NCBI GenBank assembly: GCA_963826715.1
Contig: CAWGYA010000008.1
Span: 896,001 to 960,000 of the forward strand
Length of the DNA: 64,000 nt
Direction: 5' to 3'
From: Candidatus Bathyarchaeota archaeon
Lineage (GTDB): Archaea; Thermoproteota; Bathyarchaeia; Bathyarchaeales; Bathycorpusculaceae
A program made the position numbers and the translations under genes. The notes beneath the pieces were generated by a model that was given only the letters and a program-made list of their open reading frames with translations, was not told the DNA's origin and made no database searches. Shown piece by piece: positions 19,830 through 38,367 of this stretch (positions are counted from its first letter, which is position 1; every line of letters starts with the position of its first letter).

Positions 19830-19831
19830 TA

Positions 19832-21027
19832 ATGGCGCACAAGGTCTGCTTTATCTCACCTGAATACTGGCCGCTCACAGGAGGAACAGGTTCCTACGTC
19901 TATTACCTGTCTAATGAATTGCTTAAAAATGGCTATAAACTCTACGTCGTTACAGGCTCAAACCATGCTCAAGACGTCAAAGTCAATCCAAAGTTAGATG
20001 TGTCTTTTCTGAAAATACCCAAGATGCCAATCGTTAAATCCTTCATGCTCGCTGCTAACAGCAGCCGTAAACTAGGTAGCGTTCGAGATACAGCCAACGT
20101 CGACATCACACATCCACAGCTTCCTCTGACACCGAATTTTGCTGTGCCGACAAATTTTGGAAAAGCCCTCGTCTGTACAGTCCATTCCACATGGAAGGGC
20201 GAAGCCGAAGCTATTCGAGGTGAACCCTACAGCCGCCTAAACGCCAACGAAAAGTTCCTTGTGAGTTTTAACCGGTTTTTGCGGTTCTTCGAGGAAGGCA
20301 TGCTTAAAAGGGCGAGAAAAATCATCGCTGTTAGCCACTTCACCAAGTGGGAACTTACAAACTACTACAAAATTCCCCAGAACAAAATACAGGTTATCCA
20401 TAATGGGGTTGACGTTAACAAGTTTAAGCCTGCAGCGGACAAACGCAGGGCCAAGATGGAACTGGGCTTAAACCCCGACGATTTAGCTATAGTGTCCGTG
20501 GGGCGGCTCTATGCACGTAAAGGGCTCTTTACCCTAATCGAATCCATGCCCGCAGTCATCAAACGTTTTCCAACCGCTAAATTCATCATCAGCGGCAAAG
20601 GACAAAACGATGAAATGCACAAACTCAACGCCCACGCTGAGCGCTTAGGAGTCAGAGGCAACATAGTCTTCACAGGCTACACTCCCGACCGAGAACTGCC
20701 AAAACTCTACCAAGCCGCAGACGTCTTCGCTTTTAGCACCTTCTATGAGCATCACCCGTTTGCTGTGTTGGAAGCGTTGGCAACGGGCTTGCCTGTGGTC
20801 ACCACCACTGTGGGAGGTATTCCCGAAACCATCGACAGCGGCAAAAACGGTTTTCTGTGAACCTTTCAATTCCAAGCAGTTTAGCGAAAAAATCTTGTAC
20901 CTGCTAGAAACATCCAGCGGGGGCAGCGGAAATGGGTGCCAAAGCGCGGAAGACGGTTGTGGAGCAACTGGATTGGCGTATAGTCGTCAAAGACGCCATG
21001 AAAGTCTATGATGACGCGCTAAGATAA
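19832..21027 (+). CDS. GT4 glycosyltransferase, frameshifts at ~20856 and ~20912
   Basis: IHNGVD, VGRL..RKG, LEALATGLPVV; C-terminus VEQLDWRIVVKDAMKVYDDALR* ends at 21027. Confidence 0.85.
20970..21027 (+). repeat. Direct repeat copy 1 (3' end of GT4 gene)
   Basis: ggattggcgtatagtcgtcaaaga identical (24 bp) to 21758..21781, similarity continues to the stop. Confidence 0.9.
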
Positions 21028-21738: not shown

Positions 21739-21757
21739 GCTTCGTGGAGACGCAGTC

Positions 21758-21815: not shown

Positions 21816-21946
21816 AGTTGTCTGAGGTTCAGCATTATTTAAAAGGTAAATGATTAACTATATTTCGACTATCTGTGTTGCGACCTGTACATTTTTTTTA
21901 AGCTTAATAGGAAAATAGGCTTTAGAGTGTTTCAAGGGAATTCAAT

Positions 21947-22522
21947 TTGGCGCATGAACTCCAAGCACTTATTCAACGGCTAAAACCAATCGTGTTTGTA
22001 TACATTTTCAAAGACGAAACTCCTGCAAGAATAGATCGCTTCTTGGACGTAGGCGCAACTTTGAAGCTGGTTGGTGGCTTTGAGGCTCTCACTTTTTGGT
22101 TCCGATGGGATCATGACTAGGAAGGTGATGGCATAGAGGACTGGGAACCGGTCACCTATATTATGAGCGGAGAAAAAGTTGTTGATATTCAGACACGTAC
22201 TCATTGGCGGATTGTTCGCTGGTTGAGTGACGATCCTGTTTTGGATGGTGAACGAGCGATTCTTTATTTTAGTAAACATGGCCATGCCCCATACATGCAA
22301 GTCAAAGCGAATGTTGGCTGGCTAAAAAGTGCTTTTGACAAGACCATCATAGGGTACGCGATACCTGATTTCCTTGAAGTAATGGCTGAAGAAGCTGGTT
22401 ATTTGGAAATAAGTAATTATGATGTAATACCTAACCGTGAAGCTCCACGCACGTCACGAGCAATGACAGGTGTCACTATTCTTGGCAAAAAATTCTTTGC
22501 GCAATGCTTCAAAAAGCCCTAG
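21947..22522 (+). pseudogene. Hypothetical protein (NPP1/Vps62-like motifs) with in-frame TAG at 22118
   Basis: Continuous frame from TTG 21947 through TAG at codon 58 into ORF 22163..22522; DWEPV and HGHA motifs. Confidence 0.55.
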
Positions 22523-22639
22523 AATGCGTAGCTTAGTTTTTTTGCGTTTTGTACCTTTTCAGCAGCTCGTCGATTGAGTCAGTGTCTTTGCTTTCATTTA
22601 GAACCTGATATCCAACAACCCAGTTCTTGAGTGATTCTT

Positions 22640-23207
22640 CTATTTTTGTGAAATGTCTCGTCTAATGACCTCTGGAGCTTTGCCATCAGTAACCTCTAAA
22701 GCCTTGAACATATAAGCAAATCCCGTTGATAGAGGAGCATCTGGATGCATCTTAACCCATTTCTCAACGGTATCAGTCGTTGCAAGCAATTCATCTATGA
22801 GGTCTTCCTTTCCCAGGGATTGTTTGCTTGCATTGTCAAGTTTGCCAAGAATAAACGTGCTAAAAGTTAAAGAATCGTAATTTAGCGCCCTCTCATAGGG
22901 GTCTTCAATATTATCCTGCAATCTTGACTATTTTGTCGAGGGACTCTCTCTGAAATTGTTATCCTCAGTCTTGGTAATTGATGTCGTATTTGTTAAAGAC
23001 AGGTCTTAGGTCTCTGAGGTTTCTTTGAGGAATCTCAATTACACAATTCGCCAATTTTCTATGCGGTATTTTAGATAGGATGCCATCGTTGTTTCTACCG
23101 TATAGTTCATTGTGAAATTTGGTCTTATCCTTTGTATTCTTGGAAGAAACTTGATATCTGATTATCACGTTAGCTTTAGTTAGTTTTTCGCAGCCTTCTA
23201 CTTGCAT
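22640..23207 (-). pseudogene. Hypothetical gene(s): N-terminal Cas2/VapD-like small domain plus helical C-terminal part, probably frameshifted
   Basis: ORFs 22965..23207 (IIRYQVS..KTKFHNELYG..G) and 22640..22921 closely spaced on the same strand. Confidence 0.4.
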
Positions 23208-23409
23208 CTTCTTCTACCTGCTTTGCAAGTATAATACTTCTATTAGTTATTATATAATCATTGTGTGGTAATCACAGAAGCAAGGCGCTGTTTTCTCAAT
23301 TACAGTACTTAAGTGGCGATCCCTTAGCCCAGACGCGGTCAAATTTGACAGAAGCATGGTAATAATGTTTAAGGGCATTCTTCCTGCTATGATGTCTGGC
23401 TGGTTGTGT

Positions 23410-25416
23410 TTGAGGGGTAAGTTATGGTCAATTGAGCAGGAGCGGCAACTGCGAGACCTCGTCGCAAAGGGAGTTGGTATTGCCGAGATTTCAGAGTTAT
23501 GGGTAAGACGCGTGTTTCTGTGCGGTCCAAGATGTATCATTTAGGTTTGTCTGTAGTTGATGCAGCAGCACCTTCCCCATCCATTGCTGTATCAGTTGCA
23601 TCAATTGCATCAGTTGCATCAACTCCAAAACCCATAATCGATCAGCCACCCATTGGTCAAGCCCCTTCTCAGGTTCCAATTATAGACCATCAACCCGCTG
23701 CTAGCTCTGCCTCTTTGCCGAGTGAGGATGACGCCTTTACGACTCAACTCAAGGAGAATGCACCTTTGCCTACCATTGAGGAGCAGCTTCATGTTTTGAA
23801 CGCTGCGATAGTAGAATTGCGCAGGCCAGGTATCAGCCGGGCTGAAGTTGCAAGGTACTCAAAGATTATTGATGGTGTAAAAGTTTACAATGACCTGTTC
23901 GCTAAATTTGTCGATTACCGAGGGCTCGAAACTAAAGTCTTGGAGTTAGAAAAACGGCTTGCAGAGAATAAAATCCATAGTGGGCAGAGTCGTCGCAGAT
24001 TCAATGCCAGAGATATCCAATCGCACTGGCAAAACCTGGATGAAGCGTACAGAATTCGCCAGCAAGCCACCCACGCAAAGGTTGAAGCAGTTAAGGGTGA
24101 CACGGCAGCGTTCTTCCAGCAAATCTGCCGTCTAAAACCCTTTGGCTACCAGTTGGAACTCCCAAAACTGTACCGTGAAAACCAGTTTTTGGCGGTTAGG
24201 TGGCCACGGCAGACAGGCAAGAGCACATCGATTGGAGCGTTGCTGCTTCAGGACGCCTATGAGAATGGCGACTTAAGCGTTGCATTCATTGGTCCGAGCT
24301 TTCGCCAAACCAAGCTTAACCTGCGACGTGTGGCGGGATTTTGCCGCAACCTGCCCCTGGGAACCTGCCAAGTGCAGAAAACCAGAATCAGCTTTGAAAA
24401 CGGCTCATTCATCGAAGCCTTCCCCAACAACCCCGACACCACCCGAGGCAACACATTCCACCGCGTCTGGTGGGATGAAGTCAACTTCACCCAAGGCGAC
24501 GACGACCTATACGACGCCCTCCTATACACCCTGGGAACCACAAACGGCAAACTCGTAGCCAGCAGCACCCCATTCAACACCGACTCACTGTTTTGGAGAA
24601 TGTGCAACCACAAAAGATTCGCAAACTATGCAAAACACCACTTTTCCTACGAGGCCGCACTTGAACCAAACGGTCCACTGAATGCGCAGATGATTGAGCG
24701 GATCAAGGAACAGTTTGGGGATGATCCAAGCCGTTGGCGTCGAGAGATGGAGGCTGAGTGGGCTGAAGATGAAGATGTGTGGCTTGCTCAGAGTTTGATT
24801 GTTTCGTGTATTGGCACCAAAAAGAACTGCGGACAAGACCTCGAAGAATACGACACAGAGAAAAGTTGCAGCGGAGAGTTTTTCTTGGGTAGACATCGGT
24901 CAAGTCAGAGACTACACATCACTAAGCATCGTAGAAATGGTGGACGACACGATTTATTTGAGGCATCAAAAACTGTTTCCGCATCCAACCACCCACGCAC
25001 ATGTCTTAGGCTACATCAAGCGTCTGCAGGATCTGTGGGGCGGCTTCCAGAAAATCCGCGTCGACTTCACCCGAGAAGGCCCCAGCCTCATCAAAGACAT
25101 GGAAAACGCAGGCATAGACAACGCTGAAGGCGTCAACTTCAGTGTCCCCCGAAAAAGCGAAATGGCAAGCCTACTAAAACAACGCATGCAAAACCAACAA
25201 CTCCGCTTTCCCCTGCTCACATGGGAGAAACCCTACCGAAGCGACATATGCAGTGAACTCAACGTTGAAAAATACCAACTGCGCAAAGACGGGAACATAG
25301 GATACAGCCACCCCAACGGCACCCACGACGACGTCTTCTGGAGCATAGCATTAGCCGTATACGCAACAACCGACATGGCGCCTGAACCTTTCTTAACAGT
25401 AGTTCCTCGAAGCTAA
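23410..25416 (+). CDS. Large terminase (ATPase + RNase H-like nuclease) with N-terminal HTH/coiled-coil region; frameshifts at ~23495 and ~24890
   Basis: Walker A WPRQTGKST, PSFRQ, RG..FHRVWWDE Walker B, SSTP, RREMEAEW, (G)VDIGQVRD, HDDVFWSIALA; upstream WSIEQERQL...GKTRVSVRSKMYHLGL HTH. Confidence 0.88.
23588..23623 (+). repeat. 9-bp tandem repeat (~4 copies) encoding SVA-SIA-SVA
   Basis: gtatcagtt gcatcaatt gcatcagtt gcatcaac. Confidence 0.7.
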
Positions 25417-25443
25417 AATCAAGTCAGGGCTAATTAATTGAGT

Positions 25444-25467
25444 TGGCGGGGCCGCTGGGATTTGGAC
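25444..25467 (-). other. tRNA 3'-end fragment (att-like scar)
   Basis: Reverse complement GTCCAAATCCCAGCGGCCCCGCCA = T-loop, T-stem, acceptor strand, CCA; no 5' half nearby. Confidence 0.75.
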
Positions 25468-25508
25468 ATGGCTCACAATGGAGAAATCACCCGCACTTCC
25501 CTTTCTTT
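25458..25508. repeat. Imperfect ~50-bp direct repeat copy 1
   Basis: ggatttgRac-N11-tggagaNNtcaYccgcaYttcccttt shared with 29452..29502. Confidence 0.75.
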
Positions 25509-26183
25509 TTATAATTCTAAGGGGATTATTGATAGCAGGTCAGCAAACTCATGTATTATAAAGTCAGGTTGGCTAACGAGCAACTTTGCTTGATAGTCTC
25601 TTGCATGCACGTACGCGGTCTTTCCGTATTTGCACTGTATTGTTCTTATGCCTAATTGCTTTGCGGGAACAATATCTTGCTCTAAATCATCACCGATTGA
25701 GAAGCAATTTGTAGGATCACCAATTTCCTTTAGGGCTAACTGCAAGTGTTTTCCGCATGCTTTGGGTGCTTTAACCATATCTGAAGTTATAATGCAATCA
25801 AAGAATTCAGACATTTTTAGATACTCAATCCTCGGGGTGATTACTTCTTTTACCGCATTGGTCAACAAAAAAATCCCAAAACCGTTTCTGTGGTATTTAG
25901 ATAAGACATTTTTTACCCCCGGAATTAGTTTTATTTGGTTAATTGACAAATCATGAGCTATTTTCCAGTCTATTCCAAATAGCTTTCCATGATATGGATA
26001 ATCATACCAAATCCATGAATCTTCATTCGTTCTTAAAAAGTCAAGATATTTTTCTTGAGCTTCTTTAAAGGGAATCCTTTCTTTTTCAGCAATCTCATTT
26101 TCAATTTTGTTGCACAATGTTTTGTCAAGTGAATACTCATCAGCTAACGTGCCAGTCCAGTCAAAAAGCAAATACTTCTTCAA
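25509..26183 (-). CDS. HAD-superfamily hydrolase
   Basis: FDWTGTL motif I, LTN, K, IGDDLEQDI motif IV. Confidence 0.88.
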   Translation of the reverse strand: MKKYLLFDWTGTLADEYSLDKTLCNKIENEIAEKERIPFKEAQEKYLDFLRTNEDSWIWYDYPYHGKLFGIDWKIAHDLSINQIKLIPGVKNVLSKYHRNGFGIFLLTNAVKEVITPRIEYLKMSEFFDCIITSDMVKAPKACGKHLQLALKEIGDPTNCFSIGDDLEQDIVPAKQLGIRTIQCKYGKTAYVHARDYQAKLLVSQPDFIIHEFADLLSIIPLEL

Positions 26184-26187
26184 GGCT

Positions 26188-28557
26188 TCACTTTCCCTCT
26201 TCTGCCTTTATTTCAATTGAGTCTAGGAATTTCTCAATTGCATCGCAAATACTCTCGATGTTGATGTCTTGATTAGCAGTTGCGACTTGTTTAATTTTGC
26301 CTAAGTACCTCTTGAGATTGGGGACATCATTTTTCTCCGGAGAAATTGTCCTGAAATAACTCCAAATCTTTAGAGAGATTATCGAACTAGGATTTTTCTT
26401 GAGGAGATACTGCTCGTCAATATCCTTTTTGAGAACCTGTTTTATTTCAGACTCGCCGTAGTATTGTTTTTGTATTTTATCATTCGTTGCAGCAGCTTCC
26501 CCTTTGTCCTTTAAGTCCTCGATAAGAAAAAGCACATATTCCTCACAGTATTTCCTGTCGTTTATTGTAGATAAAGCCAAACTGGCAGACCTAAAATAGA
26601 CTGGATTGTATCTCTGCCTATTAGTTACAATATCAATTAATACCTTAGTTAATTCTTCCGATTGGATTCGGAGTTTGCCTATATAATAAAGAACTTCCTG
26701 TAACCTTTCATCGTATTTTAGGAGGTCTTTTTTCTGTTCCTCAATAACATTCTTGAAAGCTACGGCAGCTCTTAAATTAAACTTACCGGGATTTAGCTTC
26801 AAGGTAAAACGGAGTCTTTCCGTTTCCTTGATAAAATGCTGGCTCACTTCGTGAGTTTGAAATACATTCCAAATTTCGGAACAGACACTCTGAGTTTTGT
26901 CGGGATTAAAAACGCAAGAGGCTAAGCTGAAGGCTATAAGATACTCCATAAATGACTTGTGTGAGAAAGTGAATGACCTATCAGTGGCTCGCTTAAGGAT
27001 GGCAAACACGCTAGAATTAAGCATTATATCGGCAACTTTACTTGGTTTCAAAACGATAAATCTCTTTACAGCACAGATTTGTTCTATTTCATTGATAGTT
27101 GTTTGCGCTGCAGCTTTAGATTCATAGTTTTTTTCAGCAATTGCGAGCAACAATTTGAAGCTTTCCTCTTCAAACAATTGCTTATCAAGGTTAAAGACGC
27201 CTGCCTTGCGGCTATGGTCATCGCTGATTTTCCATGTAATGAACTTATAGTATATTTCCGAAAGATTGCCTGATAGACCATCAAGAATTCTAATTTCCGT
27301 CTTGTTGCTTATTTCTAGGTCACAAAGCATTTTAAGAAATAGAGGCCTATTTGGCAGATCTAGAAACTTTTGGGATTCAACCTTTTCAAAAAAATCATTT
27401 ATTTCTTTAGTCTTAAGTGGCTGTTTGGCTAGCAATCCTTCCTTGTATTTTATCCATTGTAGGCTCTTCCAATCTCTTAATTCCACGTAGGTGTGATTCT
27501 TTAGGTCTCCTCCAATCGCTTGAAAGGCATCAAAAAAAGGGTTAAACTCCCTTCTACAAGTGAGTAGAACTACAAACTTGTTTTTGAAAAGGAAATTGAT
27601 AAAATGTTTCAGGACAACAGAGTTGCAGTCAGATTCGTCAATACCATCCAGAATTATTGCCAGTTTTCTATACTGTAGCATTCTCGCTATATTCTTGGTA
27701 AACAGGTCGTCATCTAATGACAACAATGCATTGCTATATCGAGATTTATGTTGAATAAGACATTGTATGATTTCTGCGACAACTTTCTGCGCGAGGTGTT
27801 CACCCTCGAATGTCTCGATTTTTTCATTAGTCAACTCGATAAAAATAGGGTAAATTGCTTCAGGAACCCATTTCTTGAAATATATTTTGCTGATTGTTGT
27901 CTTTCCCATGCCGTAAAAACCTGAACAAATAACGGGTCCATGTAGCACCGCCTTTTTTAGAAATCGCAGGCATCCACCGCTTGAGCAAGAAACATGTATG
28001 TGGCGCCTGCCATGGAAGTAATCAAAATTGTCAACAAAATCCTCTTCGCTAATATCATATGGCCACATTCCACTGATTGTCGATGATTTTTCCTTAAAGT
28101 AATCTTGAAGTTCTGGGTAGGGGTAGTATACATCATACAAGAATCGTGCCGTCTGTGAGCAGCTTTTGATAGTAACTTCCCCGCTTTCATAGTTACCAAA
28201 CAAGTTTGCCATTTTTGCCGTTGGATGGATGTTTGTCAAGAAAACAATGTGTGAACCTGTTAGCTTGTTATCTTTGGCAGTTTTCCACATATTGGGGATA
28301 TCTTCAAGTTTTTTTCTCATATACTCGATATTGCCGCCTGGGCTTTCACCGCCATAAATCTGGAAAAGAATTTCTTTGGATGCAAAATCAATACCCCCAT
28401 CCCTTCCATCCTCTGGCGCCCACAATGTAGGTCCGAATTTCCTAGCTAGAAATGACACTACGAATTTCTCAAAGGGAATGCCGTTTTTCTGGGTGAGGTC
28501 AGACTCAATACGAGCGAGTAACTGCTTGTTTAACTGAGGCGTCTTTTCAACATCCAT
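26188..28557 (-). CDS. NACHT/STAND NTPase with N-terminal restriction-endonuclease-like domain and helical C-terminus
   Basis: FEKFV..DGRDGGIDF..FQIY; Walker A GFYGMGKTT; Walker B IILDGIDE; LTCR; PLFL; FSHKSFMEYL. Confidence 0.85.
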   Translation of the reverse strand: MDVEKTPQLNKQLLARIESDLTQKNGIPFEKFVVSFLARKFGPTLWAPEDGRDGGIDFASKEILFQIYGGESPGGNIEYMRKKLEDIPNMWKTAKDNKLTGSHIVFLTNIHPTAKMANLFGNYESGEVTIKSCSQTARFLYDVYYPYPELQDYFKEKSSTISGMWPYDISEEDFVDNFDYFHGRRHIHVSCSSGGCLRFLKKAVLHGPVICSGFYGMGKTTISKIYFKKWVPEAIYPIFIELTNEKIETFEGEHLAQKVVAEIIQCLIQHKSRYSNALLSLDDDLFTKNIARMLQYRKLAIILDGIDESDCNSVVLKHFINFLFKNKFVVLLTCRREFNPFFDAFQAIGGDLKNHTYVELRDWKSLQWIKYKEGLLAKQPLKTKEINDFFEKVESQKFLDLPNRPLFLKMLCDLEISNKTEIRILDGLSGNLSEIYYKFITWKISDDHSRKAGVFNLDKQLFEEESFKLLLAIAEKNYESKAAAQTTINEIEQICAVKRFIVLKPSKVADIMLNSSVFAILKRATDRSFTFSHKSFMEYLIAFSLASCVFNPDKTQSVCSEIWNVFQTHEVSQHFIKETERLRFTLKLNPGKFNLRAAVAFKNVIEEQKKDLLKYDERLQEVLYYIGKLRIQSEELTKVLIDIVTNRQRYNPVYFRSASLALSTINDRKYCEEYVLFLIEDLKDKGEAAATNDKIQKQYYGESEIKQVLKKDIDEQYLLKKNPSSIISLKIWSYFRTISPEKNDVPNLKRYLGKIKQVATANQDINIESICDAIEKFLDSIEIKAEEGK

Positions 28558-28809
28558 TTAGTGCTTAATCGCAATTAGGGATTTTGCAATTAGATATTGT
28601 GAGCGACAAAAAAGAACATTTCTTTTTTTTCTCGTTGTGTATCATGAGCTCGGTCCTTGTTTATTCTTATTTTTGTCCATTTCAAATGGTTATAGCGGCT
28701 TTCCGAACTAAAATTTTGAGAGTTAACTGTAAAAAAATTTTAAATAAGCGCTAAATATAGTGCTTCAAGTAAGCGCTCAGACACTAAGCGCTGGAGGTGG
28801 AAAGACGAA

Positions 28810-29019
28810 ATGAGTAACGATGAACTAAGAATTGCGGTTTGCTTGGTTTTAGCAGCAGTGTTAGTTTTCCCCAGTTTAGCTTTGATGAACTCTAATCCAT
28901 TGTTTATTCTATCTCTTGGCGTTGGTATTCTTGTTATCATTTATGCATTTAGTCCCGATTTAGCCTCAGAAATTGTTGACGGAATTAAAGAAATAGTAAC
29001 TGCACCTTTCAAAAAGTGA
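28810..29019 (+). CDS. Small two-TM membrane protein
   Basis: ATG start, GGAGG upstream, two hydrophobic helices. Confidence 0.55.
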   Translation: MSNDELRIAVCLVLAAVLVFPSLALMNSNPLFILSLGVGILVIIYAFSPDLASEIVDGIKEIVTAPFKK

Positions 29020-29136
29020 TTTAATTGAATTATTGATTAGTTTCGTGACTTTGATTATGGAGCAATAGCTCTTTTTTCCATTTAAGGTGGGCGGTGCTTG
29101 TACTATATTTTCGCAAATTGTTATTTAGGTTCTTTG

Positions 29137-29379
29137 TCAGAGTTCTTCAAGAGTAATTTCGCTTATTACTTCCGAATACTCTTTTCCGTCAATTCTATTT
29201 CTTTGAAGGAGCTTACGAAAGAAATCATCTATCTCTTTGGCCTTAACCCACTCATTCTCCAAAAATTCGTCTAATGTGCCAGTGAAAGTAAGCCCATTTA
29301 TCGAAACAACTGTATAGGTTCCGTCGCCATTTTGTATTATCTTTTTCCACTGACTTATGACAGGTTCCCCAATATCCAG
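29137..29379 (-). CDS. Hypothetical 80-aa protein (non-canonical CTG start; absent from ORF track)
   Basis: Open frame LDIGEPVISQWKKIIQNGDGTYTVV...EITLEEL*. Confidence 0.35.
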   Translation of the reverse strand: MDIGEPVISQWKKIIQNGDGTYTVVSINGLTFTGTLDEFLENEWVKAKEIDDFFRKLLQRNRIDGKEYSEVISEITLEEL

Positions 29380-29451
29380 GATATATCAAGGTCTATTCAA
29401 AAATTGCCCTAACTGGATTAAACAAACCCTAGCTTAATTTTGGATAGCGAT

Positions 29452-29502
29452 GGATTTGAACTCATGCCAAAGTGGAGATGTCATCCGCATTTCCCTTTTT
29501 TT
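29452..29502. repeat. Imperfect ~50-bp direct repeat copy 2, beginning with reverse T-loop ggatttgaac
   Basis: ggatttgaactcatgccaaagtggagatgtcatccgcatttcccttttt aligns without gaps to 25458..25508. Confidence 0.75.
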
Positions 29503-29546
29503 GAGCTTAGTTTAAAGTTACTTATTTCAATGAATCAACTTGAAAA

Positions 29547-30029
29547 TTAAGAATGGGGTTTTCTTTCTCTTTGTCTTTTAATGCCGATATTTAGTGGTGG
29601 TTTATCCTGATACTCCATTACATAATACTGAATACACTTTGTCTCACGATTGTCAGCTTCTTTTGCACTGCTTAATTCAGTCCAATATACTCTTATGTTC
29701 TTGGCGTTCAGTTTAATTGTATCGGGAAAGTGGTTATCGCGGAAATACCTTCGAAAATTCCAGCCCTCTGAGTGACTATTTCGGTATAAACTCTCATCAA
29801 ATACGTCCCTATGAAATTGCCTTATTCTTCTGTTAAGATTTACCGCTTTGCCGATGCATAATATTCCATCGCTATCTTCTTTTCCATTCAACCTTGGAAA
29901 ACACTTTGGTTTGCCATTTTCTATGTAAATCAGCACGTAGACACCTGAACTTCTTGGAATTTTCTTCAATGATTCCAAGTCTGCGATTTCAGCAGTTTCA
30001 TAATTTATGAGTATTTCATCAAATATCAT
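29547..30029 (-). CDS. GIY-YIG family nuclease
   Basis: PRSSGVY...ILCIGKAVNLNRRI, conserved E, PPLN. Confidence 0.75.
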   Translation of the reverse strand: MIFDEILINYETAEIADLESLKKIPRSSGVYVLIYIENGKPKCFPRLNGKEDSDGILCIGKAVNLNRRIRQFHRDVFDESLYRNSHSEGWNFRRYFRDNHFPDTIKLNAKNIRVYWTELSSAKEADNRETKCIQYYVMEYQDKPPLNIGIKRQRERKPHS

Positions 30030-30050
30030 TGTTTAACACCCTCAAATCCG

Positions 30051-30593
30051 TTAGGTGCAAATGGCGATTCCTTTTGTTAACTCTTCAAGTTCCGATAGTT
30101 CATCGTTTGTAAGTAATCTATAAGTTGTTATCCTACTGTTCTTTAGAGGCAATAGATTGTTTATTGAAGTTTCCAATTGCTTCCACTGTACAATTTTCTT
30201 GGTTTTTCCCTTGGCAAGTTTTGATGTATCTAAAATCTGAATGAAGGTGACGTTTTCATCCATTTCAATCGGTTCATTATTTTTTACGTAATGGATGAAG
30301 TACTTAGCCAATGCTGATGTGAGAAATTTTCCACAAACCTGCGTAGGCTTAACGTTTGACTCTTCAATTTCGACAATTAGCCTAATCTTATCATGTTTAA
30401 GTATCATCATGTCAACGTTACAAAATTCGTTTTCTTTGCTTTTTACAGGGTTGTAAAATAGTGGAATGTGTTGTTTTCCGTCGCAAGCTGGGTCTCGAAG
30501 AAGGGTAAGGTTTGGGTATTTTGAAACAAATTCTTGGAAAGCTCTTCCGATTTTCTTGTGGATAATATTTGCTTCCTTCGGCATAACGGTCAT
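30051..30593 (-). CDS. Hypothetical protein, possible PD-(D/E)xK nuclease
   Basis: NVDMMIL...IVEIEES resembles the D..ExE core; 2 bp after MBL gene. Confidence 0.55.
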   Translation of the reverse strand: MTVMPKEANIIHKKIGRAFQEFVSKYPNLTLLRDPACDGKQHIPLFYNPVKSKENEFCNVDMMILKHDKIRLIVEIEESNVKPTQVCGKFLTSALAKYFIHYVKNNEPIEMDENVTFIQILDTSKLAKGKTKKIVQWKQLETSINNLLPLKNSRITTYRLLTNDELSELEELTKGIAICT

Positions 30594-30595
30594 GA

Positions 30596-31954
30596 CTAAT
30601 TCTCCAATACATACTCTTTTTCATGTTCAATCGTTTGCATGTTGCTGCAAAGAGTTTTGAATAGCTTCTGATTTTCTGTATGGACCGGAAAAGCTCGCTT
30701 GGGCTTAATTTCGTTTACCATTTCCACCAATTGTTCTTTACTCATGTGTCCCGAAGCGTGAACTTGATGGAAGTTCATTTTGAAGTGATTTAGCCAGTTG
30801 TGCATGACTTGGTCTTCGATGTCTTCTTCGCTAAAAGGTTCACTCATGCTATGGATGAATTCGCTTCCAGCTTTCGGCTTTATGTCGATTAATTCGGTGA
30901 ACTGGAAAAAGTCGAGATCCATTATTATTTTGCCTTGATTCTTGCGAACATACTTACAATCAACCATCTTATCCATGAATTTGCGTTCCCAAGGGAAATA
31001 GTCTTTCTCGCTGTATGTTCCTGACTTCTTTTTCTTATAATACACACGAATACAGTCATCTTTGAGCGGGTCTGGAACATCTAAATGCTCGTCACTGAGC
31101 AACTTGGTTAGCAGATAGGCAGTCTTGGGCGTTATGACCATTTTTCTATTATTATTTTTAGCCACTTCGTAGAAACTCTTGAACCTGTCAATGTCTCGGC
31201 TGGCATGCATGGTGAAGACTGCCTTGTCGGTTGCCTTTACGATTTTGTCGCTTATCTGTGCGACTTGCGGCTCAGAGTAGTTCTGTCGTGTTTCTCTTTC
31301 AGCCATTCTGGTTCCCTCGCAGATTAGTGCCTTAGGCTCCGCTTCTTTGGCTTTTTCGATAAAGTTTTCAGTTAGGTCTTTTCTGGGTCCGTGACGCCGT
31401 AAGTCGCCTGTATAGACGATTGTGCCTTCGGAGGCGTGAATAATAAAGCCATATGCAGCTGGAATTGAATGGTCAACCGCAATCGGCTCGACGGTCAAAT
31501 TGCCAATTTTGATTTTATGCCCTGTTCTAAACTTATTGCAAATATGTTCGCCGTAATCTGCAAAGTAACCTGTCTCCTCCATCGACTCCATAAACAGTTT
31601 CGCCCCAACGCCCATACAGACCGGAATACTTGGATCCAAAAACTCAATATGAGTTACGTGGTCAAAATGCGCATGTGAAAGAAAAACACAATCGATTTCA
31701 GGATCAGTATAAGGCAAGTTTGTTGAAGCAAGCATTTCCTTTGAATACAGACCGCTCCGCTTTGGAAGAAGACCAAACTCGAAGTAATCGCCTAAACCAT
31801 TAAGGCCTCTTGGTTGAAGCCAGTTAGTGAAAAACTCTGAGCCAAAAGTGAATGACTGCCCAAAGTCAAGAAAAATTTTGGTACCCTTGTCTTCCAAAAG
31901 TATCTTGTTGCCGCCAATCTCGTTGACGCCGCCATAGAATGTTAACTTAACGAT
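30596..31954 (-). CDS. MBL-fold beta-CASP hydrolase (RNase J-like); homologous N-terminus begins at ATC 31954
   Basis: VKLTFYGGVNEIGGNKILLE; SHAHFDH; VDHSIP; YTGD; HASGH; PVHTE. Confidence 0.88.
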   Translation of the reverse strand: MVKLTFYGGVNEIGGNKILLEDKGTKIFLDFGQSFTFGSEFFTNWLQPRGLNGLGDYFEFGLLPKRSGLYSKEMLASTNLPYTDPEIDCVFLSHAHFDHVTHIEFLDPSIPVCMGVGAKLFMESMEETGYFADYGEHICNKFRTGHKIKIGNLTVEPIAVDHSIPAAYGFIIHASEGTIVYTGDLRRHGPRKDLTENFIEKAKEAEPKALICEGTRMAERETRQNYSEPQVAQISDKIVKATDKAVFTMHASRDIDRFKSFYEVAKNNNRKMVITPKTAYLLTKLLSDEHLDVPDPLKDDCIRVYYKKKKSGTYSEKDYFPWERKFMDKMVDCKYVRKNQGKIIMDLDFFQFTELIDIKPKAGSEFIHSMSEPFSEEDIEDQVMHNWLNHFKMNFHQVHASGHMSKEQLVEMVNEIKPKRAFPVHTENQKLFKTLCSNMQTIEHEKEYVLEN

Positions 31955-32404
31955 GATTAACGCTGCTTAGACATAAGTCAGCGATATCAGCTTATAGAAT
32001 CTTCTAAACTTAATCAAAATAAGGTCAAAATGGTTTGGGGTAAAGATTTCTTGCCTCAAATGAGTTTGACAGGTCTTGTTTAAACCCCGGTCCCAATTTG
32101 AACACTGATAGACTTGGTTCCAATCATCAGAATATAATGAAGTTTGTAAGTTTACCCTTTTTTAGTTTTTATATCTCGCAAAATTGACACTTTCAAATAA
32201 ATTATAGACAAAGGCAGAGTATGAATTAACAATAACAATAAATGAATCAATTCTCCAATCGAAATCAAGGTTGAAATTATCTTAAAGACCAATTAACTGA
32301 TATTAATTTTCGTTAGTGTCTGATTTAATTAATAACCGCTAAGTCTTTATAATAAGTTAGATAATTAACACCACGTATTGAGGTACGGTTCGGGTTTGCT
32401 GGAG

Positions 32405-33062
32405 ATGGCAGAGAAAAAAGTTCTGAAACATGGTATACTCATAGCTATCGAAGGCATAGACGGCGCTGGAAAAACTACCCAATCCCATATGCTAACAGAA
32501 AAACTTAATGAAGAGGGGTATTCTGCTATTTTTTCTCCATGAACCGACCAATGGTCAATGGGGACAAAAGATTCAAAGAATTAGCAAAGAATGAGCGACA
32601 CTGAATACCTGCAGAGGAAGAATTAGATCTCTTCTACAAAGACCGCATTGAAGACGTCGAAAAAAATATAAACCCTAACATTAAGGAGAAAAAAAATTAT
32701 AGTAATAGATATAGGTACTATTATTCAAACATAACATATCAAGGCATAAGAGGGGTAAACCCAGAATAAGTTGAAAGGATAAATGAAAAAATAGCTCCAA
32801 AAACCGCACCTTGTTTTAATTCTTGACATTCCTCCTCAAGAATCATCAAGACGGATCGTTGCTTCTAGAAAGGACGGGCCAAACCATTTTGAGCGAACCG
32901 ACTATTTAGAAAAAGTTCGTAACTTGTTACTGTACAGCATTTTCGTGACAGAGATAATGTCAAAATCATAAATGGTGATTCGGCAACCATTCTGCACAAG
33001 AAGTTTTTGATTCTTTGTGGTTCTTGGTAAAACCAATAGTGCATGAGGCTGAGGAAACTTAG
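32405..33062 (+). pseudogene. tmk: Thymidylate kinase pseudogene
   Basis: IAIEGIDGAGKTTQ P-loop, HEPTNG, RYYYS, PHLVLILD fragments in different frames with several stops. Confidence 0.85.
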
Positions 33063-33327
33063 CGGTGGGCAAGGAAGAACTTGAAAGGCAAATCGCAAAA
33101 GCAGCAGAATCTCAAAGTTCAGGTTCATTGGAGATTAAAAGATTGAAAGAAATTATATGCTTAAATTCCTTTGCACCAAAGGTAAAGATAAATGCGAACC
33201 AGTTTATTGCACCTTTCAAATAACAAATACATGCCCTTTTCTTAGACAAATGGCGTTTTCTCGCAAAGAAATATTCTTTTCATGGATAATTTCAAATGTC
33301 AATAGGTCAATTTCACGGTAACATTTC

Positions 33328-34150
33328 TTAACTCGCTTCAGAGAATTTTATTCCGTACTCCCAAATTAGATTGGCCATATACTTTCCAGATTATATTAGA
33401 TTAATTTTGTTTAATGAACCTATTTTCTCTATAGTTATGTAACCATTTTTGTATCGAGTTTATATAGAATGGACTTGTTTAGATTAATTCAGTTCTTTTG
33501 CTGTATTCTTCGCCTCTCCTCTTTTGATCCAACTGTTTTTTCATCCTGGAAAAGCTCAATTTTTTTGGAAATAAGCAGACGTCAAAATTTACATCAGTAT
33601 TCATTGGTTTGCCTTTAAGAGGAAATGTTTGTTAAGACAATCTTTCCTGGTTCATAAGGGTAGTTTGATTTGAAAGTTCTCAAGCAACATTCCGTCAGGT
33701 TCAACGCAAATACTTATGCCATGTTGTTGTCTTTCTTCGTCATTTCGCGAATATCGATTTGCCCCGACATAGTAGACTTTTTGCGTTATGTGCCATTGCT
33801 GCGAGAGTGGCTACGACTGAAGCCAATCGTTCACCTGCAGACATGTTAACATATGCCAAGACTTATTTGGATTTTTCTTTCAATACCTAGACTAGAAAGG
33901 CTTATTCATTAGCTGTTTAATATCAAATAGGTTGACTTCTTGGACAATGACTTCTATTTTCTTCATTGTCAATTTCTTTTGACTTCGTTTAAGCAACGGA
34001 CTTGCTCCATATTCTCTGCTTTGAAATTTAGGTTCGGAGGTGGCAATCTACTAAGTAAACACGATTAGCGGAGAATTTTTCAAACATTATGACAGCTCTG
34101 TCAATTTCAAAACCCAATAGAATTATATGTACATGCTCTTCAAATTTCAA
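33328..34150 (-). pseudogene. DUF6293 (CARF-like + wHTH) regulator pseudogene
   Basis: HVHIILLGFEIDRA, AYVNMSAGERLASVVATLAAMAH, VYYV, SGKYMA; multiple stops and frameshifts. Confidence 0.75.
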
Positions 34151-34260
34151 AACTTTCATCAACGTTTAAACATCTTAACCATGTTTAATGATAATTAAAC
34201 TTATTTAGTTAAACAACATTTTCTATCTTCAACCTTATAAAGACTTTGGAAGTTAGAAAA

Positions 34261-34684
34261 ATGTGCCCGAAAAACATCGAGGTTGAATTGACCGACCGCG
34301 CAGTAAATCGTGTGAGGGAATGTGGTTGCGACCCACTTGAAATAATTCACTACCTTTATTCTGGTGAGATTGCAAGTTTCTGAGAACTTTCAAGGGTTTG
34401 AAATTTTAGTACCATTCAAAGGAAGATTAACTGGCACATTTGATAAAGGCATATTTGTTGCCGAATCCTTTTTGTCGCTTATCCATCGTGGCAAGTATTA
34501 CAGTTATCATAGTGAATTTTCGAGAAACCAGTTTTTTGTAATAGTCTCTCTTGTTAGAAGAAGTGGATTAAGAAGAATTGTGGTTTCTTGTACTCGTAAA
34601 GTAGAAATATCATTGTCTGAGTTCGGTTTGACGGAATCTGGGAAACCTTCCATTATCCCAATAAGTAGGTACACCGGGGAGTGA
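34261..34684 (+). pseudogene. Hypothetical protein, frameshifted (ATG 34261 to ORF 34364..34684)
   Basis: MCPKNIEVELTDRAVNRVREC.. stops ~34383; overlapping frame continues. Confidence 0.4.
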
Positions 34685-35067
34685 CAATTTTGAACTTAGG
34701 TATCATTTTCACAAAACGCAACTTCTTATTGATTGGTCTCTTAATCACGATAATAAGGGCTGCTGCCGCCTATATTAATTGGCCTGGTTTTTTATCTAAA
34801 ATTAATCCAGACGAAAAGATAGATTTGGCTAATGTCACTTATCCACAAGCCGCATATAGAAGCCAGAATTTGCCAATCTCGATTAACATTATGAATAATG
34901 GCAATTTCGGAAAAGATGTTATGGTCGAAGTTCTTTCATCAAATAGTGATAGAATTATCAATAATACTGGTATTTCTAGTGGGGGGAGCGCAAATCTTTT
35001 GGTTAATTTACCAGTTAAGAGTTGCGGTAACCAGTCTTTCAAAGTCAATGTCTATTGGAAGGCGTAG
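34681..35067 (+). CDS. Membrane-anchored protein with Ig/CARDB-like segment, probably truncated
   Basis: N-terminal TM; ISINIMNNGN and beta-rich pattern. Confidence 0.45.
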   Translation: MTILNLGIIFTKRNFLLIGLLITIIRAAAAYINWPGFLSKINPDEKIDLANVTYPQAAYRSQNLPISINIMNNGNFGKDVMVEVLSSNSDRIINNTGISSGGSANLLVNLPVKSCGNQSFKVNVYWKA

Positions 35068-35073
35068 GAGATA

Positions 35074-36012
35074 TTGACCGATTTGGAAAGTGATCATTTG
35101 CAAACCGCAACTCTGGAAGGAAACCGTTTTTTCATACCTATGGTGCCCCCTCAAATAAAACCTGAAACACTTTTGGCTGTATCGCTTCATACATCTTGGA
35201 TTGGAATTAACCTGTTCCAACTTAAACATTCAAGCTTTTATGAGAAAGCGAAAAGTAAAGGTGTCAGAGACGCCTTTGGAATCAATGATAAAATAAAAAT
35301 ATTCTTGACAACAATTAATGACGACAACTACCTTGTAAATTACTTCAATAAATCTAGTTGGTTTGAAGAATTAAAATCAGACTTGAATGGTTTTAGTGCG
35401 GACATGGTTATGGGACCTGATTGGTTTAGTTACAGAGAGGACTCACCAGAACTCAGAAATCGAAACATAAAAAAAGCAATTGATCTGAACTTAATGTTTA
35501 CATATCAAGAGAATATAATACCAACAATTCGAGGAAATTACTCCCAAGAAATTAAGCGTTTTATAAAACCTTTCAAAGAAATAGGAAAAAATTTGTTTGT
35601 TTTTACTGGCAGAGAATATCTAATTAATCTTGGTGATAGGAAGAGATCAGAATTTGAACTTCTTTCTCTCACATCCAATATCGTTAGAAATGAAAAAGTA
35701 AAATTAATTGTAACTGGCTGTAGCAGTCCAAGGCAACAAGAAAATTTACCTGATGTTTTTGGGTTTTCAGGTCTGGGATGGTTAATCAACGCTAAGAGAA
35801 GAATGTTAATTTCAGGCAAGACTTACCGATGGCTTTCATCACCTATATTTTCTTGCGCAGATCCGGATTGCTGCAATTCAATGAACAAATCTGAATTGGC
35901 GCAATCAAAAAATGACTCGATTCGTGCAATTCATAATTTGAAAGCAATTATTGCTAGACTGAACACGGCAAAACATATGCAACAATCTTGTTTGGGGGAT
36001 TTTGATGGGTAA
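35074..36012 (+). CDS. tRNA-guanine transglycosylase (TGT)/DpdA-like TIM-barrel protein
   Basis: MGPDW, IIPTIRG, LIVTG, FSGLGW..A, C-terminal CADPDCC...AIHNL resembling the TGT Zn site. Confidence 0.5.
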   Translation: MTDLESDHLQTATLEGNRFFIPMVPPQIKPETLLAVSLHTSWIGINLFQLKHSSFYEKAKSKGVRDAFGINDKIKIFLTTINDDNYLVNYFNKSSWFEELKSDLNGFSADMVMGPDWFSYREDSPELRNRNIKKAIDLNLMFTYQENIIPTIRGNYSQEIKRFIKPFKEIGKNLFVFTGREYLINLGDRKRSEFELLSLTSNIVRNEKVKLIVTGCSSPRQQENLPDVFGFSGLGWLINAKRRMLISGKTYRWLSSPIFSCADPDCCNSMNKSELAQSKNDSIRAIHNLKAIIARLNTAKHMQQSCLGDFDG

Positions 36013-36532
36013 CAAAAGCCGCTCAAAACATTATAATCATAAATCTGGTTATGGTGCTCAAGGAACATTTGCCCAAGTGCAATTTCCTCACATGATGCCT
36101 AGATTAAGTCGAACCGATGTTGACTTATTGCTCCCAGTTTTAAAAGAGGTTGGTAAAGTTATTTGCCCACCTGCAGCCATTCCAATAGAAATTTTATACC
36201 AGCTTTATACACATTCAGATGTGATAACAGAAGTAGGTTCTGCAATTAATAGAGGCGATTACAAGGGGGCAGTTATTGCTGCAGGATACCAAATAGTAAA
36301 AGATGTGGTTGGCACAACATTAAGTTCTAGTGCAAATCAATCAGTCGAAAAAGTTGCTTCAAGCGCAGGTGAGATAACTGGCAATGCATTTAAGGATGAA
36401 CAATCGAAAGAGCTTGCGAAAAAAGTTACTGAAGCCTCCGTAAAAGGAGGTGTAGAAGGGATTCAAGACAAAATAATAGATAAAACAATTGATTCCATAA
36501 AGGGATCGATAGAAGGTGAAAGAAGTGAGTAA
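36002..36532 (+). CDS. Hypothetical protein
   Basis: 176-aa ORF overlapping neighbours in operon fashion. Confidence 0.6.
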   Translation: MMGNKSRSKHYNHKSGYGAQGTFAQVQFPHMMPRLSRTDVDLLLPVLKEVGKVICPPAAIPIEILYQLYTHSDVITEVGSAINRGDYKGAVIAAGYQIVKDVVGTTLSSSANQSVEKVASSAGEITGNAFKDEQSKELAKKVTEASVKGGVEGIQDKIIDKTIDSIKGSIEGERSE

Positions 36533-36812
36533 TCAAGCTAAGATTAAACTTATCAAGGATACTGTGATTAAGTCGATTTTATCACAAACTTCCGATAACC
36601 TTGCGAAAAACAGTGTAAGCGAGCAGAAAACTCAGGCTTTATTACGAATAACTGAACTGAAACTTGAGAGAATATTAGACAATTTTGACCAAGCTGACAT
36701 TCTACCTAAAAAGTTCTTATCTCAAGAAGAATTTGAAAGTCATTTACTTACTCTAATTGACTTATCCAAAGAAAGGTTAGTTGAAGACGTAAACCTCGAT
36801 AAGAAACATTAG
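36516..36812 (+). CDS. Hypothetical helical protein
   Basis: 98-aa ORF overlapping the previous gene. Confidence 0.55.
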   Translation: MKEVSNQAKIKLIKDTVIKSILSQTSDNLAKNSVSEQKTQALLRITELKLERILDNFDQADILPKKFLSQEEFESHLLTLIDLSKERLVEDVNLDKKH

Positions 36813-37075
36813 CGGATATTGTTCTTGAGATTTGGAGAAAAGATGTTGAAAAAATTAATAGTTTCTTTTAAATAATCTTTGAACGTCAATTGAAAATATT
36901 GAATCATCAAAAAAGTTGCGCTTTTTTTAGTTATCATATTTTCTATGGCCTTCAGAACATAAGTAAAAGGAGTAGTGAGGTTTGTTTAAAAATTTGTTTT
37001 ACTTGTGCAAACAGTTTAAGAAAAGGACTTTCGGTATTGCTTATTTTTACACCAGACGTGTTGTAGTCGTTTTGG

Positions 37076-37186
37076 TATTTCGCCAGAGTTGCACACTCAG
37101 AACAAGAAACTTGCCAATTAATAGAAGCCGGCTTTGAATTCGTATGCGATTTTGGTGTTAACAAGGTTTTCAGAAAACGCAAGTGA
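37076..37186 (+). pseudogene. C-terminal remnant of an archaeal tyrosine integrase
   Basis: YFARVAHSEQETCQLIEAGFEFVCDFGVNKVFRKRK* resembles the C-terminus I recall for Bathyarchaeia integrases; tRNA scar 47 bp downstream. Confidence 0.65.
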
Positions 37187-37233
37187 AATTTGGTGTAGAA
37201 AGTAAACCAAAAAAAATGGAAGGGGATTATTCG

Positions 37234-37257
37234 TAGCGGGCGGGAAGGGATTTGAAC
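37234..37257 (-). other. tRNA 3'-end fragment (att-like scar)
   Basis: Reverse complement GTTCAAATCCCTTCCCGCCCGCTA; no 5' half nearby. Confidence 0.75.
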
Positions 37258-37402
37258 AAAGGACAGCGTGCCCTCAGGCATCTGTCCTAATCCATCATTG
37301 GTAAATGAAGGATAGCGCTTTTCAAAGGATTGGAGATTATTCTGTATGTGGTTGATTGAGGCGTTATTCCGGAGCCAATTGGACCTAAAATATATTCGTT
37401 AG

Positions 37403-38367
37403 TTACCCAATTTCCACAGTTGTACCTCGATAAGCCATTGTGACCTTTTGAAACAGTTTTACAATGTCTAATGAGCAGAAAAGCGCTTTTGTTAGGTACT
37501 CGTGCTGGTAAATCATCATCTGCGCCTTCACGGGCAAATCGATCTGTGGTGGCTCAAAGAATCGGGCAACTGAATCTACTGGTTCCCCTTCAAGTTGGAT
37601 ATCTTCTTCGCGCAGCCCCGTCTTTTTAGCAATATAGGAAAGGTATGTGCCCTTCCAATCAAGCATCATAACTTCGCAGAGATTATGTCTATAGCTAAGG
37701 CATCGTTGCCCGTTAGAATAAGCCCCATGTTTACTGGTTTGCCCTTGGTTGGTCCGTTGCCCTCTATTCCCGTGCGCGCATCCATAATGGTTAGATTGGG
37801 CTTAAAAAGTGTGTAGAGGAGATAGAACACCTCGGGCAGATATGGGTGCAGATAGATTCGGCGGTTGCTGGGGATACAACCGAATAGGTTCTTAATCGCG
37901 CCGCTGTAAGCCATAAACTCATGCGTTTTCATCAATGGTAAATCAACGACAGCGTCAGCGTCAAGGATGGTTTTGGGCAGAAACAGACGCTTCACCGATG
38001 TGCCATTGTGGAATTTGACTTCGACGATTTTGTCCTCGCTGAGGTTAATGGCAGTTCCACCCGCTGCCTCTACCGCTTCCTTCATGCCTGTCTTGTCAAA
38101 TGCATCCCAGCAAGGATAGTTGATGCCGTTGGATTCGCCCACTACCACTTCGCTGTTGCCATCGCGGAGCAAACCGACGAGTTCCCTCATCAGAGCTGGG
38201 CTAGTGACAACACCGGGCAAGTATTTAGGGTGGCTGAGGTTGGGTTTTATGTAGATACATTTTTTGCCTCGGAGTCCTGAATTAGCGACGGCTTCTTTGA
38301 GGATGCTGCTTATGTCCTTTGATGAACGGAAGATTTTTACGGTTTTCTGCTCAGGTATCATTTCCAT
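37403..38367 (-). CDS. DUF362 family protein, split near 37668
   Basis: IKPN, VVTSP, LPLMKTH, GAIKNLFG, H, DA..GIEGNGP, DALAID; 37403..37669 supplies the C-terminus. Confidence 0.85.

Follow-up and report, generated by a model that had tools for sequence, protein, structure and literature searches.

Bathyarchaeia are an abundant class of uncultured archaea of soils and sediments. Their head-tailed viruses have been described as complete elements, among them a 46.8-kb provirus, and no lone pair of terminase genes is described in the parts of these reports consulted (10.1101/2023.08.24.554615; PMC11697101). Here we report such a pair from a 64-kb stretch (the window) of the genome of a Candidatus Bathyarchaeota archaeon (G000), where a small gene and a gene for a large terminase (TerL) occupy positions 23410-25416. 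The pair comes from the same host class as the described viruses and shares their hallmark TerL, which they carry together with major capsid protein (MCP) and tail genes; another copy of the pair in G000 (copy B) lies in a cluster of just that kind. Judged from sequence, the window pair may well be functional as a stand-alone terminase cassette, with related viruses supplying the capsids on which it would depend as a satellite or an interfering element, a reading in which we place about as much belief as doubt.

The terminase of head-tailed viruses (T4 gp17-type) has the same ATPase and nuclease domains and a small helix-turn-helix (HTH) gene overlapping it upstream, and the same pair is found in 80 viral contigs of Bathyarchaeia type. 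Unlike these, the cassette lies among cellular genes without linked portal, capsid or tail genes, and its small subunit matches no solved small terminase (TerS). Known phage satellites are equipped in addition with an integrase, with replication and regulation genes and, in many cases, with capsid genes. Phage-inducible chromosomal islands (PICIs) with TerS and capsid-forming PICIs (cf-PICIs) with both TerS and TerL offer a parallel, as a lone pair would likewise need helper virions and redirect packaging. Terminase genes are reported for cf-PICIs in the consulted parts of the sources (PMC10085698; 10.1101/2025.02.11.637232). The cassette differs from satellites in comprising only two genes in ~2 kb, with no integrase in the scanned flanks of 11 lone-pair loci, and our literature search found no satellite of the terminase-pair kind described for archaeal head-tailed viruses. 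Lateral transduction is known from integrated prophages, as far as the consulted parts of the reports go (PMC8575938; PMC8575950; PMC12829572). As in that process, a resident terminase would begin packaging in situ, at a pac site in the chromosome, and proceed in one direction into adjacent host DNA, and variable islands do lie downstream of TerL at two cassette loci; there, however, a complete prophage supplies everything, whereas here only the terminase is resident. Domesticated genes of defective prophages are a general phenomenon in bacteria, and gene transfer agents (GTAs) keep head and tail genes under host control. The pair resembles these in being virus-derived, vertically inherited and under purifying selection; unlike the situation in a GTA, no structural cluster without its own TerL was found in G000, both MCP clusters having one.

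The orphan state of the window pair, already suspected in the earlier note on this DNA, is genuine. Among the open reading frames (ORFs) of at least 80 aa in the window, 60 of 62 were scanned (TerL and its antisense ORF were left out) and none matched a PHROG head, connector or tail family. When 33 proteins of a related provirus were searched against the window by tblastn, only the small gene and TerL were matched. Furthermore, the arrangement is not confined to the window. Twenty chromosomal loci were fetched around the best full-length TerL matches, and 13 of them hold the small gene and TerL only; five have a viral structural string upstream, one reads p148-p80-TerL-ABC, and at the remaining locus (L051) a structural cluster lies 11 kb off in opposite orientation. 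Close homologs therefore do not always lie in proviruses, a point on which the earlier note had made its proposal depend. At 11 lone-pair loci, no virion family or integrase was found in the 70 of 106 flanking ORFs scanned against Pfam, and the recognisable neighbours are all cellular or conflict genes (Mrp/Nuo subunits, ribosomal proteins, primase, GINS, P-type ATPase, CheB/CheR kinases, UbiD, ABC transporters and PIN toxins). The chromosomal solo pairs occupy nine or more different sites among housekeeping genes, and DNA homology between solos at different sites is limited to the two genes.

The catalytic motifs of TerL, which the earlier note had called intact, withstood closer comparison. 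In the window, ORF 23499-25127 (542 aa) matches Pfam Terminase_6N (E = 5.9e-12, 46.1 bits, cut-off 22) and ORF 24799-25416 (205 aa) matches Terminase_6C just below the cut-off (E = 4.3e-4, 20.7 bits, cut-off 22.6). Window TerL also matches the PHROG TerL family phrog_2 (E = 6.5e-24), and in an intact paralog the PHROG TerL models span the nuclease part. The ATPase part contains a Walker A (RQTGKS) and a Walker B motif (VWWDE); a profile built from 20 family members finds the ATPase of T4/RB49 gp17 (E = 1e-18), with Walker A, Walker B and C-motif aligned and with GKS, DE and the TTP/STP motif paired. Across 20 aligned TerLs K82 and E168 are invariant, as are D307, D364 and D452-D453, which we take to be the catalytic residues of the nuclease. 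The window locus holds a 486-aa large terminase of T4 type that is predicted, by its motifs, to be catalytically complete. No isolate phage has a close counterpart: the best isolate-phage TerL covering at least 80% of the query is only 23.6% identical, and all 788 matching records fall below 60% identity.

In all genomic copies a small gene overlaps the TerL start in a different frame, and tblastn detects it ahead of TerL in 74 of the 80 viral contigs; the HTH and helical region that the earlier note saw upstream of TerL is present. In the AF2 model of the small protein (pLDDT 68.9) an HTH (residues 23-60) is followed by a disordered segment (61-120) and a helical hairpin (122-204). The HTH matches the fold of the GcrA DNA-binding domain (Z 7.2, 48 aa) and, as a generic match, that of the Tc3 transposase (Z 6.6, 46 aa). 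Neither Pfam nor PHROG gave a TerS match; Foldseek placed 44RR gp16 at rank 47 (E = 2.8), and a protein atlas returned Terminase_5 (score 0.79) as a lead only. Complex prediction for TerL with the helical half of the small protein scored 0.00 and gave no verdict. We take this ~195-aa HTH/linker/hairpin protein, as modelled, to be a putative small-terminase equivalent.

The insertion can be delimited by comparison among 60 genomes of the genus, searched at the DNA level. The cassette (23310-25467) recurs at 93-96% identity in four genomes (G002, G059, G011, G067), at the same site and with the same end points, whereas the host flanks are only ~75-79% identical. The site is empty in seven species (G013, G057, G056, G043, G076, G010, G061), in which the right-flank gene faces a GT4 glycosyltransferase gene directly and convergently; by comparison with these, the insertion starts directly after the GT4 stop codon. 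The simplest form is seen in G011, where host genes abut the insertion on both sides and the whole of it, 2.57 kb, consists of the two genes plus ~400 bp with two tRNA-3'-like fragments. The window insertion spans ~21030-37400 and is the cassette enlarged by two further inserts, one on the left (21030-23309) and one on the right (25468-37400). The left segment is common to G000 and G002 only, partly also to G059, and is absent from G011 and G067, in which the cassette abuts the GT4 gene directly; its synonymous divergence (dS) between G000 and G002 is 0.03-0.04, and that of TerL in the same pair is 0.21. The right-hand island is absent from G011, and its place in G059 is taken by a different insert, of ~10 kb.

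A second ortholog group was found with a lone pair between primase-GINS-exosortase genes and a PIN gene in G008, G073, G068 and G055. At both ortholog loci inserts of 3-12 kb lie just past the TerL stop, and the 3' end of TerL seems to be an insertion hot spot. G068 (G068:C1:2101619-2110385), compared with L047, has a 3.7-kb insert at the TerL 3' end flanked by a ~24-nt duplication (query 3582-3605), and G073 has a 3-kb insert at the same position.

Cassettes are kept intact by purifying selection at these two independent loci. Among the four orthologs of the window pair, the ratio of nonsynonymous to synonymous substitution (dN/dS, ω) of TerL is 0.048-0.092 at dS 0.09-0.19, and that of the small gene is 0.16-0.64. 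Along the G000 branch TerL has acquired 26 synonymous and eight nonsynonymous changes and no stop (ratio of nonsynonymous to synonymous changes per site, pN/pS, 0.08), a pattern unlike that of an old pseudogene and unlike the neutral evolution that the earlier note had seen as fatal to its idea. Divergence in the flanks of the window locus is mosaic, dS ranging from 0.1 to saturation, and the window cassette has probably, from the sequence comparison, been exchanged recently between species. At the second locus TerL is intact in G008, G073 and G068, and ω is 0.047-0.072 at dS 0.45-0.75; the flanking primase shows ω 0.08-0.09 at dS 0.72-0.79, GINS shows ω 0.06-0.08, and flank dS overall is 0.7-1.0. 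A terminase without virion genes has thus been held as tightly as replication genes over species-level divergence. Between nonorthologous solos synonymous sites are saturated, and dN/dS is there uninformative on recent relaxation.

The viral relatives have a constant gene order. In the best 80 of 133 IMG/VR matches it reads MCP...tail...fiber-p148-p80-small-TerL-ABC, with ABC following TerL in 70 of the 72 viral contigs that have at least 500 nt downstream. A TerL tree of 109 sequences (88 in viral context, 21 solo) was examined for the placement of the solos. The 21 solos need four label changes, compared with a mean of 19.5 after shuffling (0 of 500 shuffles as low), and they fall largely into two solo-only clades, of 11 (SH-aLRT 100) and eight sequences (SH-aLRT 99), with which a smaller tree agrees. 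The window group belongs to the eight-sequence clade and is sister to viral contigs keeping p148 and ABC. Judged by neighbouring genes, the larger clade occupies at least six sites and the smaller at least three. Five solos of the 11-sequence clade, all with different neighbours, share a promoter-like leader of ~80 nt with a TTTATAAG box; in viruses the small-gene ATG overlaps the p80 stop instead. The shared nonviral leader points to a common ancestor of these copies in which the pair was already solo. We hold with middling confidence that the solo pairs descend from the small-TerL-ABC/GNAT packaging module of the head-tailed viruses of the genus, all virion genes having been lost. Lone small-TerL cassettes in archaea were not found described in the literature, supplements (which could list such loci) aside. 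In a separate observation, L044 (G023) and L048 (G001) share flanks, with a PMT-type mannosyltransferase upstream, and their TerLs fall in different sub-clades, which suggests replacement or repeated insertion at one site.

Possible helpers are at hand in the genus and in G000 itself. Of 24 genomes sampled from the genus, 21 have the family TerL, often more than once, and ten have the matching capsid protein. G000 holds four copies of the pair with 48-80% protein identity. Copy B (contig C7) stands at the end of a cluster of head-tail virus genes; HK97-type capsid protein, scaffold, neck and tail genes were recognised in it, but no portal gene. Downstream of TerL, copies B and C both encode a 480-aa ABC-ATPase/GNAT protein. 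This ABC-type ATPase with a GNAT-like C-terminal part (PHROGs 293 and 11143; L008:10744-12192, minus strand; L009:9358-10800, plus strand) is absent from the lone pairs. Copy D has no ortholog closer than 76% in the 60 genomes. In practice, finding TerL by itself is no safe indication of a provirus in Bathyarchaeia.

A mechanism can be proposed on this basis. The small protein would bind a site in or near its own gene and recruit TerL, which would cut at the bound site and, having no capsid of its own, dock on procapsids of a related resident or infecting virus. The need for foreign procapsids is our inference; related head-tailed viruses are frequent in the genus, and one such cluster lies in G000. 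TerL would then pump DNA rightward, through the TerL gene and into the adjoining island; the cassette and its neighbours would spread much as satellites do, or as DNA does in lateral transduction, at a cost in capsids to the virus. In pac-type phages packaging normally starts at the binding site of the small subunit and runs in the direction of transcription. Rightward packaging would carry the cassette and the DNA downstream, which is where the inserts of 3-12 kb sit at both ortholog loci. It is possible, and we put it forward tentatively, that promoter-small-TerL cassettes of ~2 kb are an undescribed, terminase-only archaeal element that commandeers the capsids of related viruses for itself and its island, at once the smallest satellite and an anti-viral capsid thief. 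If the lone pairs are functional, the packaging enzyme alone would be a unit of selection apart from the virion genes, and Bathyarchaeia would have a new route of gene flow, a new conflict between virus and host, or both.

Several points weigh against a functional cassette. No integrase, terminal inverted repeats or clear target duplication bounds it. The pair is not complete everywhere: G060 retains the small gene only, the small gene of G059 is frameshifted, three of the eight sequences in the window clade (L043, L046, L048) have one in-frame stop each, and in G055 the TerL frame is broken once close to its 5' end, by a stop at about query residue 9 that precedes a possible later start. Within G000, copy D TerL and the copy C small gene are frameshifted, although assembly errors may be to blame here as well. 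Compared with solved TerS, the small protein shows no significant similarity in sequence or fold; its HTH is the one part with a match, the hairpin resembling generic coiled coils. Cassette dS at the window locus is 0.09-0.25, while several flanking genes range from 0.6 to saturated, so that part of the divergence may be older than the orphan state or, through recent transfer or recombination, independent of it. The solo-only clades might reflect unsampled viral relatives. Finally, G010 and G022, which carry solos, have a full-length TerL and no MCP match, which would fit a missing resident helper; as both are fragmented metagenome-assembled genomes (MAGs), the MCP gene may still be present.

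Among the alternatives, the one that survives best, though we regard it as unlikely, is a host defence or addiction cassette that does no packaging. The HTH protein and a TerL-derived ATPase-nuclease would form an abortive-infection, interference or toxin-antitoxin-like pair that cuts incoming or replicating viral DNA or jams the viral terminase or portal, and is kept by host selection or addiction. A compact cassette in which a small DNA-binding gene overlaps a larger nuclease gene is what such a system would look like, and several divergent copies in one genome as well as vertical inheritance with ω as low as in housekeeping genes are consistent with it. Conflict genes are also found nearby: MNT and a NACHT-like ATPase in the window, two PIN genes at L047, one PIN at L050, RHH at L052, and Dnd and PDC-S11 genes beside copy B. 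This link, however, is anecdotal, covering a few of the 11 loci and lacking statistics, and no PADLOC model matches the copy B TerL or small protein. Moreover, all packaging motor and nuclease motifs have been kept, which a decoy or toxin would not need.

A somewhat weaker alternative is a decaying stub, left after deletion of the rest of a provirus, whose low ω stems mostly from its viral past and recent transfer. The small-TerL(-ABC) module lies at the very end of proviruses and would survive deletion most often; most of the 80 viral contigs do have TerL, with ABC, at their end. Partial modules of other kinds exist in G000, where a tail module (p463' to p80; C5:76579-82884) ends 8 nt before a host sensor-kinase gene, and copy C (small-TerL-ABC; C5:105489-108791) lies 22.6 kb further on the same strand at similar divergence. 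The end of the tail module after p80 makes the p80|small junction a recurrent breakpoint, which is also the left edge of the lone pairs. The stops and frameshifts of some solos and the low dS of the window cassette relative to its flanks are likewise expected of a stub. Against this reading, the second ortholog group has dS near that of its flanks (0.45-0.75), ω of 0.05-0.07 and a solo insertion shared by four species, and the pN/pS of the G000 branch is hard to reconcile with decay. The exact two-gene subset recurs without ABC and without p80, and the solo-only clades and the shared nonviral leader speak against independent truncations. Of the three origins entertained in the earlier note, satellite and domesticated motor remain, and the plain proviral relic fits worst.

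An equally improbable alternative takes the G000 assembly at its word: either the HTH-coil-TerL fusion is real (if only the gap at 23962 is real) or the copy is a fresh pseudogene (if all gaps are). The earlier note had read 23410-25416 as a single ORF with the HTH region fused in frame to TerL. As assembled, the copy is broken into three frame segments, with the first HTH half in frame 1 (23272-23544), linker, coil and ATPase in frame 0 (23436-25127), and the nuclease in frame 1 (24799-25416); the net length is divisible by three, which explains how the interval could pass for one gene when read without tools. In a five-way alignment of the window with the orthologs in G002, G059, G011 and G067, G000 alone has deletions, against all four orthologs, of 1 nt at ~23403, 1 nt at 23492, 1 nt at 23962 and 2 nt (CT) at 24889. 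The first lies upstream of the likely start of the small gene; the second splits the HTH (frame 1 to frame 0); the third creates the apparent fusion, bringing coil and ATPase, and these only, into a common frame so that the small gene reads into TerL past the TAA stop at 23969-23971; and the fourth parts ATPase from nuclease. In all four orthologs the small protein (193-206 aa) is encoded separately, and TerL, intact at 486 aa, begins at a TTG that overlaps the end of the small gene. The gene is also separate and overlapping in the three paralogs and in viral contigs, and no fusion was found among four orthologs, three paralogs, 80 viral contigs and the 120 best database homologs, the longest of which is 504 aa.

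Contigs from four public runs (X1-X4; no public run contains more than 28% of the sampled words) were aligned to the window stretch. Every covering contig in all four runs has an extra T at 23492, including X2, in which seven contigs are otherwise identical to the window. At 24889 an X2 contig ends with seven unaligned letters, and X1, X3 and X4 contigs carry +CT there and +G at 23962. Identical contigs thus allow a check of two gaps; they contradict one, and at the other the contig is truncated. What speaks for the assembly is that the same-strain X2 contigs do not span 23403 or 23962, which leaves room for a real fusion in G000 and counts against our two-gene reading; that the region around 23962 differs from the orthologs at several bases besides the gap; and that restoring the bases at 23492 and 24889 would, arithmetically, give one frame of 670 codons over 23410-25416. 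Deletions of the same kind, however, split neighbouring host genes. Three glycosyltransferase genes (GT2, GT2 and GT4; window 18073-20911) are broken by 1-2 nt indels found in G000 only, five deletions and two insertions in 4.6 kb, with intact orthologs in G011, and this looks like local consensus error in a strain-variable region. Genome-wide ORF coverage is 0.76-0.83, not clearly worse than the 0.72-0.93 of relatives, so that the indels appear local and not genome-wide. Considering the two-gene state of the orthologs and the base at 23492 in otherwise identical contigs, the frame breaks are likely local consensus errors of the G000 assembly, and the in-frame small-TerL junction is probably another. 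More generally, "fusions" and frameshifts in long-contig MAGs can be consensus deletions.

A self-mobile, terminase-derived transposon, moved by the RNase H-like nuclease of TerL and the HTH protein, could account for ~2-kb cassettes at many unrelated intergenic sites without a recombinase, for the Tc3-like HTH and for the solo-only clades, and is nonetheless very improbable, since terminal inverted repeats and a consistent target duplication are lacking, nothing outside the genes and the 80-nt leader is conserved at the ends, the HTH match is generic, and no near-identical copies occur within a genome (the G000 paralogs are 48-80% identical). In the same vein, neither terminal inverted repeats nor convincing direct repeats were seen at the 2.57-kb insertion or at five solos of one clade, and a junction repeat resembling TAAG(T/A)TAA was discarded as too short to trust.

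With these alternatives weighed, the layout read as a stand-alone terminase cassette within its enlarged insertion is given in Table 1.

Table 1. Features of the terminase locus and its surroundings in the window
Feature	Positions	Strand	Remarks
GT4 glycosyltransferase gene, left host flank	19832..21026	+	split by G000-only indels at ~20857 and ~20911
First inserted segment	21030..23309		MNT nucleotidyltransferase (21106-21399) and small ORFs
Terminase cassette	23310..25467	+	2.16 kb; small gene, TerL and tRNA-like fragment
Small gene, TerS-like	23404..23971	+	Myb/GcrA-like HTH, low-complexity linker, helical hairpin
TerL, 5' part	23959..24889	+	ATPase domain, frame 0; TTG start of orthologs corresponds to 23959
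TerL, 3' part	24890..25416	+	RNase H-like nuclease domain, frame 1
tRNA-Arg 3'-end-like fragment	25443..25464	-	att-like scar
Low-GC island beside scar	25468..37400		11.8 kb, GC 0.35-0.39
Right host flank	37403..38367	-	87-aa ORF and 233-aa gene

The 233-aa gene of the right flank is a putative DUF362-like gene. The island contains genes for a HAD hydrolase, a 789-aa NB-ARC/NACHT-like ATPase and an MBL/RMMBL-fold hydrolase, ORFs without assignment, and a 160-aa ORF that is possibly GIY-YIG-like; no integrase was recognised in it.

The disruptions of TerL cluster in the linker between ATPase and nuclease (residues ~249-316 in copy B numbering). They are found at L043, L046 and L048, at ~24889 in the window, at ~10270 in L010 and in G014:C1:822662-824069, and comprise in-frame stops at 249, 265 and 290 in three solos, frameshifts at ~277 (copy D) and ~298 (window) and one copy split at ~313-319; each copy has a single disruption and is otherwise open. 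Other TerL copies break at ~98 and ~215, outside the linker. The linker disruptions may be tolerated split forms, recoding or chance, and their clustering may even mark viable split forms.

The tRNA scar pointed out in the earlier note does begin 27 bp past the TerL stop, with 21 of 22 bases matching the 3' end of tRNA-Arg(GCG) on the minus strand, and the homology of all orthologs and environmental contigs to the window ends at it. ARAGORN found no tRNA gene in the window, and there was no Rfam match in 20500-26000. By a strict pattern, a tRNA-like fragment follows TerL in three of 22 solo sequences and ABC in two of 53 viral ones; as a general mark of lone pairs it was rejected, being local to the window locus and L052. 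Across 28 loci ARAGORN found no tRNA gene beside TerL, save a tRNA-Gly ~0.9 kb off in L043. Isolated fragments resembling tRNA 3' ends, with no tRNA gene nearby, were also seen in G011 (L037:8270-8293 and 8521-8544), 251 nt apart past the cassette, and in G000 (C7:151977-151998), at the far edge of the copy B cluster.

The copy B cluster is flanked by a full Dnd set (DndA-like, DndB, DndC, DndD, DndE) and a DUF4268/PDC-S11 gene (L008:3543-9692; L011:7895-9202; C7), and a second DndB-like gene occupies the position expected for the portal. A further provirus type in G000 (C5:150001-189238, L162 and L163; C7:152001-177000, L012) has the order ABC-GNAT, divergent TerL (Terminase_6N E = 1.9e-5), MCP, tail, AEP primase and tyrosine integrase. 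The idea of a split GTA was rejected because a divergent TerL of its own, as well as an integrase, belongs to the MCP cluster at C5:162-177 kb. This second provirus type contains inserted host-like sensor-kinase genes.

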